NCBI GenBank assembly: GCA_031264075.1
Contig: JAISEO010000088.1
Location: forward strand, 1 to 53,067
Direction of reading: 5' to 3'
Length of the DNA stretch: 53,067 bases
DNA from: Coriobacteriales bacterium
GTDB taxonomy: Bacteria; Actinomycetota; Coriobacteriia; Coriobacteriales; UBA8131
In this document: piece after piece, positions 1,799 through 13,421 of the stretch
Numbering within the stretch: the stretch's first letter is position 1
Layout of the letters: each line of letters opens with the position of its first letter
Translations under genes and position numbers: made by a program
Notes under the pieces: generated by a model
Databases searched by the model: none
What the model was told of the DNA's origin: nothing
What the model saw: the letters and a program-made list of their open reading frames with translations, nothing else

Positions 1799-1828
1799 GT
1801 GTGCCAAAACCTATAGGTTTTGGCACAC
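1799..1828. repeat. Left recombination site of switch A (perfect 30-bp palindrome)
   Basis: GTGTGCCAAAACCTATAGGTTTTGGCACAC is its own reverse complement; the 20-bp core occurs four times in the window. Confidence 0.9.
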
Positions 1829-1973
1829 CGTTTTCAGGCCGTTTTTGAGTGGAAGTTGACGAGGCCGAAAATTGATGTAGATTTCTCAAAACACTCCATC
1901 TACAAGCTGTTATACTGTGAAATAGTCCTGCAGCGGACAGACAGGGGTCTTCCGTTTTTAAGGGTGATTTTAC
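1829..1973 (-). promoter_or_regulatory. Invertible promoter segment A (145 bp), pointing away from the CWB2 gene (putative OFF)
   Basis: Reverse complement of 9970-10113 with about 12 differences while the flanks are co-directional; -10-like TATAAC on the minus strand at 1914-1909. Confidence 0.85.
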
Positions 1974-2003
1974 GTGTACCAAAACCTATAGGTTTTGGGA
2001 CGC
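1974..2003. repeat. Right recombination site of switch A
   Basis: GTGTACCAAAACCTATAGGTTTTGGGACGC; same 20-bp palindromic core. Confidence 0.9.
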
Positions 2004-2047
2004 CATCTACCAGCAGTTTAAGCGCGATATTGGCAAAGGAGAGGCAC

Positions 2048-5000
2048 ATGAAAAGCAAGATAATGGGCAAGACAAGGAAGCTGCTATCCGTCCTATTGGT
2101 ATTGGCCCTTGTGGGCATGGTGCCGGCTGTTCCGGCGTTTGCCGAAGAGGGGGTTATCGCAGGCGATGAGTTCAGCTTTAATACTACAACCGGTACGCTG
2201 ACCATCACTGACGACGGTAATAATGGAGAAAACCCGTGGATAGCCGACTGGTATTCTGCATTACAAACTGCTCTTTCTGACGCAGAGCTCTCAACGTCTG
2301 ATATAACTACCGTAAATGTTGGTGCAAAGACAAGCTTTTTGCCGCCGCCTGACTACAGCTATGGGTATTTCTGGAACGGTTGGGATGGGCTTGAGGCTGT
2401 CAACGTTGATTCCGATAACGCGAACTTCTCTTCTGTAGAAGGTGTTCTTTTTGACAAGGCAAAGCAAACGCTGCTCTGCTATCCAAAGAAGCGCGAAGCA
2501 GCCGCATACAGCATCCCAGAGGGCGTCGTCGCAATGAATGCTGACGTTTTTGCAAGGTGTAACGAGCTGACGAGCATCTCTCTGCCCAGCACCCTGCTGA
2601 GGCTCTACAACGATTCCCAGTACTTACCTAGCTTTGAGCCGTTTTACAGCTGTACAAACCTTGAGACAATCTCCGTTGCGTCTGGCAACGCCGTATTCAT
2701 CGCAGAAGACGGTGTGCTGTATGACAAAGCAAAGTCCGCGCTCATTTCATTTCCGGCAAAGAACGCCCAAACATCCTATACGCTTCCTGCTACGGTCAGC
2801 ATAGTCAACCGCATAGCCTCAAAGAATCTCACTCGTGTTGTTATACCTGATGACACCGCAATGACTAGAATTCCTGGCCCTACTCTTGAATACTCCGAAC
2901 AAGATGCGAGGGCCTTCAAGTATTACGCTTCTGGGTTCACAGCAATGCCGCTGTTGGAGTCAATCACCATACCGGCTGCCATATCATCCATAGGGATCTT
3001 GGCATTTAGCAACTGTTCGAGTCTGGACGAACTGGTATTCAAAGGCGCTACGCCGCCTGCCATTTTGGGCCAGAATGAGATAGGTTCCGGTGCCGCGCTC
3101 TGGGATACATACACGAACCCCGACTACCCCGACCTTCCACTACAACCCAGTGCTTCAGGGACTCTCCGGTGCCCATTTGGTGCTATCGCTGCCTACACCC
3201 CGTTGAAGACGGACTTCAGTTTGACTCTTGGAGGTTGGAGTATCGTCGAGGAGCCAGCCACTGCCACGAAAGACATAAGCCGCTTCGTGCTTGCCGGTGT
3301 GGAAGGCACCATTAACGGCACGGACATCTCTCTGGTACTGCCCTCCGGCACCAACGTCACCAGCCTGGCACCGACCATCACCCATACCGGAGCCTCCATC
3401 AGCCTGGAGAGCGGAACAGCACAGAACTTCACAACCCCAGTGGTCTATACCGTGACTGCCGGGGACAGCTCCACCAAGATCTACACCGTCACGGTGACGG
3501 TTGCAACGATAAGCAATGTAGTGGTTACGCGTACGAGCGCGACAGAGTTTTCCGTCAGGTTCAACAGCAACCTCGCAGGCGACATTCAGATCTTCGGCTC
3601 TAACGGCGAGAGCCCCATCTATCCGATAATCAGGCGTCCTATCACTCCCGGCCAGAATACGTTCGGCCCGGGTCTTCCTGCTACAGACATCTATGGTGAC
3701 TGGGGACACCTTGGAGAGACTGCCGCAGCTGTCGAACTAACAGCCATGGTCTCTGAGATCCCTGTCTGGTCTGACACATTCGCCATCCCCGCTTGGAACG
3801 ATGGAAAGGCAAGTACCAAGGACATCACCTCCTTCAAGATAGGCACGGTCGTAGGCACGATAAGCGGCACAACCATCAGCGTCACTGTCCCCTATGCGAC
3901 AGATGTTACTTCGCTGACTCCGGCCATCACCCACAGCGGAGTTTCCATCACTCCCACAGGCTCACAGAACTTCACACGTCCCATCACCTACACGGTGAAA
4001 GCAGAAGACGGAACCACGAAGGCCTACACCGTGACGGTATCGAAAGAACCTCCCCCAGTAGACACAGAATGGCCCCGCCTCGACGGCAACAAGGGAGAGA
4101 AGGGAGGCCGCTACGACACCATGCAGGCCATTGTGAGCACAGGCTGGAAGGATGAAGGCTCTCCCTACGTCATAGTGGCAAGCGGCATGAACTTTCCTGA
4201 CGCCCTCGCAGCCTCAAGCCTTGCTGGCATCTACGGAGCACCGGTCGTACTCACCGAGAGCTCAACACTCACCTCTCAGGCAGAACAGACCATAAAGGAC
4301 CTCGGTGCGACGAAGGCTCTTGTCATAGGTGGAGAAGCCGCAGTCTCCAAAGAGATACTCGCGGCACTGGAAGACATCGTAGGCCCAGGGAACGTAAGCC
4401 GAATCTCAGGAGGTACCCGTATAAGCACAGCCCTCGACATCTATGAGAAGGGAAGGACACCTGACGCTAACCAAGCCTCCTGGGGAGACATCGCCATCAT
4501 AGCCAACGGCTTCAGCTTTGCAGATGCCCTCTCCGTCTCTCCCTTTGCCAACGTCACTCGCTCCCCCATATTCCTCTCTACTCCAGAAAGCATGTCGGGA
4601 AGCGGCCTTGACGAGGCAACACTTGCTGCCATCAACACCGGAGGCTTCAAGAGGATAATCATCACCGGAGGCACCGCTGCCGTACCAGGCATCGTAGAGG
4701 ATCAACTCGCCTCATCAGGAGCTACAGTAGAACGCTGGTCAGGAGCCAACCGCTATGAGACGAGCGCAGCGATTGTAGAGAATTCACTTGAGAACTCAGG
4801 AGGTGCGCTCTCTCTCAATAACATAGTCTGTGCCACCGGCTTCAACTACCCCGATGCCCTCGCAGGAGGAGCCTTCGCAGGTCACATAGGCACCGTGCTC
4901 CTGCTCGTACACGCAGAAGCAGAGGGTGGACGTACGGGACTGAGTATTATCGAGGCGCATAAGGACGAGATAGGGAAGGGCTATATCTTAGGTGGCAGTG

Positions 5001-5050
5001 CCGCTGTGCCAGATGAGCTACTGACACTCTTGCAGGGTGGAGCGAGGTAG
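2048..5050 (+). CDS. CWB2 surface protein A: signal peptide, BspA-type LRR region, two Ig-like (DUF5018-like) repeats, three C-terminal CWB2 repeats
   Basis: RBS AAAGGAGAGG before ATG 2048; signal peptide ending PAFA; YSIPEGV..LTSISLPSTL LRR_5-like repeats; repeated KDIxxF...APTITHTG...TYTVTAxD; CWB2 motifs NFPDALAAS, FADAL, NYPDALAG, GANRYETS. Confidence 0.9.
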   Translation: MKSKIMGKTRKLLSVLLVLALVGMVPAVPAFAEEGVIAGDEFSFNTTTGTLTITDDGNNGENPWIADWYSALQTALSDAELSTSDITTVNVGAKTSFLPPPDYSYGYFWNGWDGLEAVNVDSDNANFSSVEGVLFDKAKQTLLCYPKKREAAAYSIPEGVVAMNADVFARCNELTSISLPSTLLRLYNDSQYLPSFEPFYSCTNLETISVASGNAVFIAEDGVLYDKAKSALISFPAKNAQTSYTLPATVSIVNRIASKNLTRVVIPDDTAMTRIPGPTLEYSEQDARAFKYYASGFTAMPLLESITIPAAISSIGILAFSNCSSLDELVFKGATPPAILGQNEIGSGAALWDTYTNPDYPDLPLQPSASGTLRCPFGAIAAYTPLKTDFSLTLGGWSIVEEPATATKDISRFVLAGVEGTINGTDISLVLPSGTNVTSLAPTITHTGASISLESGTAQNFTTPVVYTVTAGDSSTKIYTVTVTVATISNVVVTRTSATEFSVRFNSNLAGDIQIFGSNGESPIYPIIRRPITPGQNTFGPGLPATDIYGDWGHLGETAAAVELTAMVSEIPVWSDTFAIPAWNDGKASTKDITSFKIGTVVGTISGTTISVTVPYATDVTSLTPAITHSGVSITPTGSQNFTRPITYTVKAEDGTTKAYTVTVSKEPPPVDTEWPRLDGNKGEKGGRYDTMQAIVSTGWKDEGSPYVIVASGMNFPDALAASSLAGIYGAPVVLTESSTLTSQAEQTIKDLGATKALVIGGEAAVSKEILAALEDIVGPGNVSRISGGTRISTALDIYEKGRTPDANQASWGDIAIIANGFSFADALSVSPFANVTRSPIFLSTPESMSGSGLDEATLAAINTGGFKRIIITGGTAAVPGIVEDQLASSGATVERWSGANRYETSAAIVENSLENSGGALSLNNIVCATGFNYPDALAGGAFAGHIGTVLLLVHAEAEGGRTGLSIIEAHKDEIGKGYILGGSAAVPDELLTLLQGGAR

Positions 5051-5070
5051 GGGGCGATGGCAATCGCCCC
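5051..5070 (+). terminator. GC-rich hairpin right after the stop codon (no U-tract)
   Basis: GGGGCGAT-ggca-ATCGCCCC. Confidence 0.4.
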
Positions 5071-12512: not shown

Positions 12513-12546
12513 AGGCGAGAAAGAAAACACAAAAAGCTACTACAGA

Positions 12547-12584
12547 CCGAAGGGGGGCAGAACCCGTGTTCTGCCCCCCTTCGG
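12547..12584. terminator. Perfect 17-bp stem-loop downstream of CWB2 gene C
   Basis: CCGAAGGGGGGCAGAAC-ccgt-GTTCTGCCCCCCTTCGG. Confidence 0.65.
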
Positions 12585-12661
12585 CCGCCCGGCCAAGGGC
12601 ATAGAGCAGCAGGATTCATAAGCACTCGACCATCATCCACGGTCTCCCTCCCTATAATTTG

Positions 12662-12706
12662 AGAAAAGAAAGCTCCCGATCCGTAGGGGTCGAGGGTTTT
12701 CTTTCT
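12662..12706. terminator. Terminator-like hairpin upstream of the recombinase
   Basis: AGAAAAGAAAGCTCCCGATCC-gta-GGGGTCGAGGGTTTTCTTTCT, with T-rich tails on both strands. Confidence 0.5.
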
Positions 12707-12803
12707 GTGGGGCCTCAAAACCATGGCATTTCGCCGGAATCGCCCCTGGGTAAGGGGGTGAGTATCCCCCCAGACAAAGCAACCGGACGAAAGGAGACCA
12801 GAG

Positions 12804-13421
12804 ATGGCTCTGTACGGCTATGTGCGTGTATCGAGCACCGAGCAGAACGAGGACCGCCAGATGCTGGCGATGCAGAGGGCAGGCGTCGAGCTGGAGAACG
12901 TCTTTGTGGATAAGCAGAGCGGCAAGGACTTCGAGCGTCCCTCATACATCGCTCTCGTCGAGATACTCAGGTCTGGCGACCAGCTCTGCATCCAGAGCAT
13001 AGACCGGCTCGGGAGGGACTACACGGAGGTGCAGGAGCAGTGGCGCGTCCTCACCAAGGAGATTGGCATAGACATATTCGTCATCGACATGCCCCTGCTC
13101 GACACCCGCCGCGACAGAGACCTGCTCGGCACCCTCATAGCCGATCTGGTGTTGCAGATACTCTCCTTTGTGGCACAGAATGAGCGCGAGAGCATAGGTA
13201 AGCGGCAGGCCGAGGGCATAGAGGCGGCAAAGCTGCGCGGCGTACGCTTTGGGCGCCCCGAGATGGAGCTCCCGCCTGACTTCTGGCGTTACGTGCGGAG
13301 GTGGGAGAAGGGGAGGATCGCGTTGGAGGAACTCCTCGATGCCTGCGATATGAGCCGGACGACCTTCTATCGCAGGTACCGGAAGTATCGCTCGATACAG
13401 AAGCCGAGGCAGGCGTCGTAA
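12804..13421 (+). CDS. Small serine recombinase (resolvase/invertase, Hin/Pin-like)
   Basis: YGYVRVSS catalytic Ser motif, [14 protein letters not shown] arm, C-terminal [22 protein letters not shown]. Confidence 0.95.

Follow-up and report, generated by a model that had tools for sequence, protein, structure and literature searches.

How does a site-specific recombinase invert a DNA segment rather than delete it when its crossover sites have no polarity? Textbook serine invertases take their direction from an asymmetric central dinucleotide together with Fis and an enhancer, and resolvases with symmetric centres take theirs from accessory sites. The window analysed here (53,067 nucleotides, the whole of contig C1 of the source genome G000, which comprises 2.18 Mb on 105 contigs and is 90.2% complete) raises the question because two short switches in it are bounded by inverted copies of a palindrome with a self-complementary centre. 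We propose that these are two of about ten promoter invertons for secreted, mostly CWB2-type proteins in an uncultured termite-gut member of the Coriobacteriales. With the segment pointing at the gene the surface protein would be made, and with the segment flipped the gene would be silent. A small serine recombinase encoded in the window, P0001, would bind each palindrome as a dimer, cut at the central AT and swap the inner half-sites. Like the Bacteroides enzyme Mpi, it would serve every locus in trans. As a whole, this model of about ten promoter invertons for surface proteins, all turned by P0001, is probably correct, judging from the comparisons below.

The 20-bp palindrome CCAAAACCTATAGGTTTTGG matched the window exactly at four positions (1804, 1979, 9945 and 10119) where none was expected (0 of 100 dinucleotide-preserving shuffles of the window contained a match), so that the four sites with a shared core reported in a preliminary description of this DNA stood up. 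At both loci the left site, GTGTGCCAAAACCTATAGGTTTTGGCACAC, is perfectly palindromic over its 30 bp. The right sites keep 25–26 bases of it, and at both loci their gene-side end reads GGGACGC. The outer flanks of the two switches were collinear (96% identity in the distal flank, 89% in the gene-side flank), and the interiors were mutual reverse complements (93% and 91%; coordinates in Table 1). An interior reversed between collinear flanks is the pattern expected from crossover within the shared palindrome. The comparison therefore bore out two earlier proposals, that the outer half-sites stay with the flanks and that these are inversion switches recombining inside the palindrome. A hix site is 26 bp long, with two half-sites around an asymmetric 2-bp core. 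The label 'hix-like' used at first does not fit: the AAACC and GGTTT blocks lie 4 bp apart, not 2, with TATA between them and a self-complementary central AT, the site is 30 bp long, and the enzyme is nearer to Sin than to Gin.

The same arrangement recurred across G000, with 17 family sites (16 exact and one with a single mismatch) at ten loci; an eighteenth match (C39:113, two mismatches) looked unrelated and was set aside. Common to all ten loci were a distal flank of ~45 bp, two sites and an interior of 150–155 bp. Seven switches were complete (two in the window and one each on C9, C51, C54, C70 and C105), those on C67 and C94 were cut by contig ends, and the one on C71 was truncated; three contigs ended at a site or no more than 16 nt from one. 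The downstream genes that are present shared a leader and one signal-peptide family (MKSK..GKT.KLLSVLL or MRTKHMGR..RLLSVLL). The C105 gene encodes a CWB2 protein (E = 1.3e-42), and the 750-residue protein downstream of the C54 switch gave no CWB2 match. On C70 (1077–1383) a complete switch stands ahead of a 20-codon gene stub; on C71 the switch (4470–4560) breaks off ~37 bp into the interior, and the distal flank also occurs on its own at 3509–3565. Across the nine complete switches (seven from G000, two from its sister genome G021) the sites were spaced 171, 174, 175 (six times) or 176 bp centre to centre. Three of these nine face their gene (switch 1 of the window and those on C9 and C51) and six face away, a contrast between paralogous loci and genomes and not within one locus.

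Drift within the family was unevenly distributed. The half-site consensus from 32 half-sites was GTGT[R/C]CCAAAACCTA, with positions 3–4, 6–13 and 15 invariant. Among the seven G000 switches 13 of the 14 cores were identical and 1 of the 20 core columns varied, alongside 71 of the 156 interior columns (46%; pairwise identity 73–92%, mean 79%). Near-identical cores beside drifting interiors indicate that something besides recent copying keeps the sites constant. This bears on the possibility that the switches are fossils, which inverted in the past and are now fixed in their present orientations. Of the listed sequencing runs, one DNA run (X1, as contigs only) and no RNA run contained the stretch; the X1 contigs over the window contained no strand-changing joint and gave no clear within-population mixture, and some family members are degenerate, as fossils would be. 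Against fossils stand the constancy of the cores while nearly half of the interior varies, an intact recombinase gene, and a promoter block and hairpin conserved with compensatory changes (see below); we consider fixed fossils very unlikely.

The longest invariant block of the interior, present in all nine switches, was the 12-mer GCTGTTATACTG, which includes the extended −10 box TGTTATACT. It was followed, 15 bases further on, by a 10-bp bulged hairpin in which 98.8% of cells were paired and three pairs had changed on both sides. In 500 shuffles this paired percentage was equalled once and the covariation score once, and slid-partner controls gave 45–60% pairing. The G-U pairs of the hairpin would be C-A mismatches on the other strand, and the structure would thus belong to the RNA made in the promoter direction. 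If a promoter facing the gene means ON, switch 1 would be ON for gene A and switch 2 OFF for gene C. A promoter and terminator scanner found no terminator, and an Rfam search of window positions 1–16000 returned nothing relevant. A further motif, GGTAGATG / CATCTAC (GTAGATG), is present in three copies at each switch, one in the distal flank, one in the interior and one in the gene-side leader (1771–1778, 1896–1902 and 2005–2012 at switch 1). The interior copy lies just upstream of the −10 box and is followed by AGCTGTTATAC, the leader copy by the similar AGCAGTTTAAGC; the motif may serve as an operator or represent a second, weak promoter.

We asked which enzyme could turn these switches. P0001, whose gene starts 291 bp 3' of the gene C stop, agreed with the earlier report of a 205-residue serine recombinase ~290 bp after that gene: it matched PF00239 over residues 4–147 at 90.3 bits against a cut-off of 23.3 (E = 1.7e-25). 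It carries the motifs YVRVSS (R8 and the catalytic S10), DRLGRD and FGRP (GRP arm) and a C-terminal helix-turn-helix. Among solved structures Sin (2r0q) was the best match (99.7 bits, E = 1.4e-27), in an alignment that spans residues 3–190 and includes the helix-turn-helix. The gamma-delta and Tn3 resolvases followed at about 72–76 bits (gamma-delta E = 2e-20), and the Gin invertase (3uj3), at 53 bits, was the weakest full-length solved match. P0001 was 51% identical to staphylococcal and enterococcal plasmid genes annotated 'recombinase family', and it scored 29.4 bits against the Mpi family NF009949, below the cut-off of 272. By these matches P0001 is classed as a small serine recombinase of the resolvase-like branch, neither of the Hin/Gin class nor a member of the Mpi family. 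P0001 belongs to a very large protein family, from which 8000 candidates were scored; beyond one 82% identical, G021-like protein the matches listed were 63–72% identical. PF00239 genes occur at four places in G000: P0001, an unrelated gene on C77, an intact paralog on C91 (62% identity) and a second C91 paralog broken by a TAA stop.

One link between P0001 and the switches came from G021. There the P0001 ortholog (81% identity) stops 31 bp short of a homologous switch. This switch showed 73% identity to a 296-bp query (window 1755–2050, which runs from the distal flank through switch 1 to the gene-side leader), and after it comes a surface-protein gene whose signal peptide is of the same kind. 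The distal flank of every switch aligned to the last ~30 nt of the G021 ortholog gene (24 of 30 positions), and more weakly to the 3' end of the P0001 gene itself. A recombinase-gene tail in every distal flank indicates that the family was copied from an enzyme-adjacent switch and carried the gene tail along. In the window, ~25 nt past the P0001 stop, the sequence CTCCCCAAACCAAC, similar to one outer half-site, is followed by a GC-rich hairpin (13440–13500); it may be what is left of an enzyme-adjacent switch of the kind still present in G021.

Site and enzyme also co-occurred among related genomes. The site (with at most one mismatch) was found in 3 of the 34 genomes of the family and close homologs of P0001 (E ≤ 1e-10) in five, including all three that carry the site. 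Within the genus two genomes had both and four (56–87% complete) had neither, and a DNA search of 401 genomes of the order with the 296-bp query returned only the three site-bearing ones. Homologs at E ≤ 1e-55 were present in 49 of the 401 genomes, and at 14 of 33 homolog loci (1.5-kb flanks), many of them from the same genera and thus not independent, an inverted site pair spaced 117–176 bp lay next to the gene. By this comparison the P0001 clade is a clade of invertases.

Enzyme and site types moreover appeared to be matched. The open reading frame of the intact C91 paralog extends into a site pair spaced 146 bp, TATCAAAAGG-TAAA/TTTA-CCTTTTGATA, and passes through the first site; the broken C91 paralog adjoins a 136-bp-spaced TGTA/TACA pair, and a homolog in G004 adjoins a TCTA/TAGA pair. 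One form of the recognition helix is shared by P0001, the G021 ortholog and one G004 copy; both C91 switches have TCAAAAGG arms, and KEATFYRRLREL is found in the TCAAAAGG-linked enzymes. The type of recognition helix tracks the type of arm, and together with the adjacency, gene-tail, co-occurrence and paralog comparisons this points to P0001 for the switches. The two C91 elements (44450–44615 and 14122–14277; L018, L019 and L188) are short invertible elements in their own right, both next to a P0001 paralog, and downstream lie a zinc-ribbon protein and a Listeria-Bacteroides-repeat/NPCBM protein. We conclude that P0001 is the best candidate for the invertase, acting in trans, as comparison supports. 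The earlier proposal of one enzyme acting in trans on both switches thus keeps its candidate and its mode of action, and its count has to be raised from two loci to about ten.

The switches might instead be flipped by a tyrosine recombinase, as RecV does at cwpV, with the palindrome read as 12-bp arms around a 6-bp spacer. That locus is the nearest functional analogue for a phase-variable CWB2 protein (PMC2784873). Only three PF00589 genes were found in G000, however; two of them resemble the usual pair of ~300-residue Xer proteins and none lies on a switch-bearing contig, whereas serine recombinases adjoin homologous or analogous switches at 14 of 33 loci. A tyrosine recombinase is therefore an extremely improbable agent.

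If P0001 is the enzyme, what gives the reaction its direction? Serine recombinases make 2-nt staggered cuts at the centre of the site, and half of the tetramer rotates by 180 degrees (PMC11607074; PMC4817059). A self-complementary AT overhang religates in either alignment, and the site alone therefore cannot separate inversion from deletion. Elsewhere direction comes from accessory sites in resolvases and from Fis and an enhancer in Hin (PMC4817059), and activated Hin and Tn3 mutants freed of accessory control give both inversion and deletion or resolution products (PMC4817059; PMC2602789). Using a half-site weight matrix built from the 32 half-sites, in which true half-sites score 19.9–28.1 bits, we found no match above 8 bits, other than the sites themselves, within 120 bp of the seven complete G000 switches. 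Similarly, no Fis-type HTH_8 (PF02954) match was found in the 90.2%-complete G000. The self-complementary centre and the weight-matrix result agree with the earlier suggestion that direction must come from outside the site. We considered the distal flank as a res-like site II, but it contained no half-site-like motif, and the recombinase-gene-end fossil fits it better. Strict helical phasing is also unlikely (lengths ranged over 171–176 bp, with one switch at 171 bp against 175).

With a self-complementary centre and no accessory sites, direction most likely arises from the way a short loop behaves mechanically. If the DNA made a U-turn over ~150 bp, the two sites would lie side by side, and swapping the inner half-sites would then rotate the loop, that is, invert it. 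Deletion would require a full 360-degree loop with the sites head to tail, and its product would be a 175-bp circle. A rough worm-like-chain estimate of our own (150-bp persistence length, 175 bp), which ignores protein-induced bends and twist, gave about 4 kT for the U-turn and about 17 kT for the full circle. T4–T5 tracts just inside both sites may aid the bending. On this loop-mechanics reading short loops would tolerate symmetric sites.

Several observations weigh against the model of about ten promoter invertons turned by P0001. The promoter is putative, a consensus match, and the sole sigma-70 match returned by the scanner (TTGACG-16-TAGATT, in switch 1) is not conserved. In five of the nine switches the hairpin is followed by 4–5 T's, and its effect may accordingly be attenuation of transcription and not stabilisation of the RNA. 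P0001 lies 2.7 kb from the nearest switch and has no switch 3' of it in G000, which also holds the intact 62%-identical paralog on C91. The co-occurrence sample consists of 34 incomplete and related metagenome-assembled genomes, and in one of them, G004, a 69% homolog occurs but no such site. A PF00216 search for HU/IHF proteins gave no match in the 90%-complete G000; its control also missed Corynebacterium, so the search is possibly insensitive for Actinobacteria. Lastly, one contig of run X1 (depth 10.4) joins position 9940 to 10115 and skips 174 bp, the letters between being ambiguous.

Two alternatives leave the switches real and change the enzyme or its behaviour. The C91 paralog, intact and of the same clade, might flip the switches alone or together with P0001, which would then be redundant or have another target, as its lack of an adjacent switch in G000 would allow. 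The paralog, however, adjoins a switch of its own with different arms (TATCAAAAGG) and a different centre (TAAA/TTTA) and also differs in its recognition helix, and the G021 ortholog of P0001 adjoins a switch of the CCAAAACC lineage, from whose gene end all distal flanks derive. We regard a role for the C91 enzyme at these switches as quite unlikely. The other alternative is that the enzyme is non-directional, both inverting and excising the 175-bp segment and recombining between loci, so that switches decay and the genome rearranges. A self-complementary centre and the failure to find accessory sites would fit such an enzyme, as would the two product types of control-free Hin and Tn3 mutants (PMC4817059; PMC2602789), the degenerate loci (the truncated C71 switch, the solo flank at C71:3509–3565, the C70 stub and the half-site remnant after P0001) and the three contigs that end at a site or within 16 nt of one; the X1 joint from 9940 to 10115 is possibly the excised form. 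That joint is equally explicable as an inverted interior, though, and contig breaks are expected at any repeat of 75–92% identity. No flank-site-flank scar was found in the assembly, and seven intact G000 switches and two in G021 persist with near-identical sites. A non-directional enzyme is thus a possibility that we take seriously while thinking it unlikely, and P0001 as a directional invertase remains our preferred reading.

We asked where the symmetric centre came from. The enzyme-adjacent switch of G021 has a TACA/TGTA centre, with unlike arms. In G008 the centres are TGTA/TACA between the same CCAAAACC arms, in one ~150-bp switch that extends across two contigs. None of the 14 loci of the order with adjacent pairs had TATA, and the other loci of the order had centres of the TACA/TGTA type. 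Among the relatives examined, TATA was confined to the expanded G000 family and the second G021 switch, and all the others carried an asymmetric centre in inverted orientation, from which it follows that TATA is the derived state. By this comparison the symmetric centre is a derived one-step change, TACA to TATA, that accompanied multi-copy spread in the genus. Two wider scans contributed nothing to this picture. A scan of a genome collection for the arms with a free 4-nt centre returned at least 118 stretches, scattered single sites with 85 different centres, none of them TATA among the matches listed, which we discarded as chance noise; a metagenome scan for TAYA centres returned 10 unrelated loci. 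One of these ten, on the AT-rich metagenome contig L143, has CCAAAACC arms with TACA/TGTA centres in inverted orientation 2.5 kb apart (7772–7791 and 10266–10285), a pair that may bound an unrelated, larger invertible segment.

A bolder proposal can be built on these comparisons, namely that this is a minimal serine-invertase system. Its sites would be polarity-free, perfect 30-bp palindromes with a self-complementary AT centre, with no enhancer, accessory site or Fis, and the mechanics of a ~150-bp loop alone would make inversion prevail over excision. One change in the centre, from TACA to TATA, found only in this genus, would have coincided with spread from one enzyme-adjacent copy to about ten loci. 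In this full form we hold the proposal only tentatively and think it more probably wrong in some part. If it is true, the TACA-to-TATA change has the consequence that any two sites in the genome are chemically compatible, whichever way they point.

The features of the window are collected in Table 1.

Table 1. Switches, surface-protein genes and recombinase gene of the window (coordinates are window positions).
Feature	Coordinates	Strand	Basis
Distal flank of switch 1, 3'-end fossil of a recombinase gene	1757..1798	+	common to all ten switch loci
Left crossover site, switch 1, perfect 30-bp palindrome, TA/TA centre	1799..1828	.	exact match and self-alignment
Invertible segment, switch 1, promoter towards gene A (putatively ON)	1824..1978	+	reverse complement of switch 2 segment; aligned with 8 other switches
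Extended −10 box TGTTATACT within invariant 12-mer GCTGTTATACTG	1908..1916	+	same in 9/9 switches; consensus match
Conserved hairpin (5'-leader stem-loop) just 3' of −10 box	1932..1956	+	pairing and covariation
Right crossover site, switch 1	1974..2003	.	exact match
Gene A, secreted CWB2 / DUF5018 / BspA-type LRR surface protein	2048..5050	+	CW_binding_2 E 8.2e-44
Gene B, CWB2 paralog without a switch of its own	5310..7361	+	CW_binding_2 E 2.7e-46; no site upstream
Distal flank of switch 2	9898..9939	+	96% identity to switch 1 flank
Left crossover site, switch 2, perfect 30-bp palindrome	9940..9969	.	exact match and self-alignment
Invertible segment, switch 2, promoter away from gene C (putatively OFF)	9965..10118	-	−10 box 10027-10035 on minus strand; hairpin 9987-10011
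Right crossover site, switch 2	10114..10143	.	exact match
Gene C, secreted CWB2 surface protein	10188..12512	+	CW_binding_2 E 7.6e-46
P0001, 205-residue small serine recombinase, candidate master invertase	12804..13421	+	PF00239 90.3 bits

Other elements of the window lie around and between these features. A GC-rich palindromic repeat of ~100 nt between genes A and B (5100–5200) gave 57 BLAST pieces genome-wide, and its contig depths in run X1 added up to 4099. Genes of toxin-antitoxin type surround the switches (56–1303, 8252–9301, 9400–9605 and 13620–14288), among them a HipA kinase (E = 1.4e-50) and two Fic/DOC proteins. A small minus-strand open reading frame upstream of switch 2 is, by resemblance, presumably a HicB-type antitoxin, and switch promoters in the OFF orientation would fire towards such upstream minus-strand genes. 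A strong GC hairpin without a T-run lies 3' of gene C (12549–12583), 220 bp before the recombinase gene; read-through past it could tie expression of the recombinase to the state of switch 2.

Parts of this system have precedents. In Bacteroides fragilis Mpi, one small serine recombinase, acts in trans on many dispersed capsule-promoter invertons of ~170–230 bp. The present system is like it in that one enzyme apparently acts in trans on many short promoter invertons for surface structures, and differs in phylum, in site sequence, in the full symmetry of its sites and in serving protein genes rather than polysaccharide loci. In resolvases res site I has an A/T centre. The Sin, beta, gamma-delta and Tn3 resolvases gave the best sequence matches to P0001 and share the A/T-centred crossover site; unlike them, the present switches have no accessory subsites beside the crossover site, and what would be carried out is inversion of a promoter segment and not cointegrate resolution. 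At cwpV of Clostridioides difficile the tyrosine recombinase RecV and terminator formation are at work, in contrast to the serine recombinase candidate and the putative promoter inside the segment here. The cwpV product is a phase-variable CWB2 protein with a short invertible element upstream of its gene (PMC2784873). Hin, Gin, Cin and Pin resemble the present system in having a small serine recombinase, a promoter segment between inverted sites and arms that contain A-tracts, and are unlike it in that here the sites are 30 bp long and symmetric at the centre, the segments are shorter by a factor of about 10 and the search for a Fis-type domain gave no match; Hin in its wild-type form depends on the Fis/enhancer system and on a supercoil branch (PMC4817059). 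In Flavonifractor and Oscillospiraceae a hin gene with a ~120-bp invertible promoter directly downstream was described in 2026 (PMC13418256), a layout shared by the G021 ortholog, the C91 paralogs and many Coriobacteriales homologs. The Flavonifractor switches are single and enzyme-adjacent, with a FliA promoter and flagellar regulators (PMC13418256), whereas the family described here has about ten loci away from the enzyme, surface-protein genes and a symmetric centre. A survey found invertons to be numerous in gut Actinobacteriota (PMC11892184).

Short promoter invertons served by serine recombinases (Hin, and Mpi at many loci) and phase variation of CWB2 proteins (cwpV) are thus already known. 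A literature search that covered few subscription journals returned no description of a recombinase-switch system in Coriobacteriales and none of a natural inversion system whose crossover sites are fully symmetric. What merits an experiment is the pairing of symmetric, accessory-free sites with a resolvase-like enzyme, which seems to run about ten inversion switches with neither an asymmetric centre nor accessory control. The sister lineages offer a natural comparison, with the same arms, asymmetric centres and a single copy beside the enzyme gene. If loop geometry alone directs the reaction, a 205-residue enzyme and a 30-bp site would make a very compact, factor-independent genetic toggle and a clean system for studying how short DNA loops gate strand exchange. 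For the organism, the set of switches would mean combinatorial variation of surface proteins in a Coriobacteriales gut symbiont.

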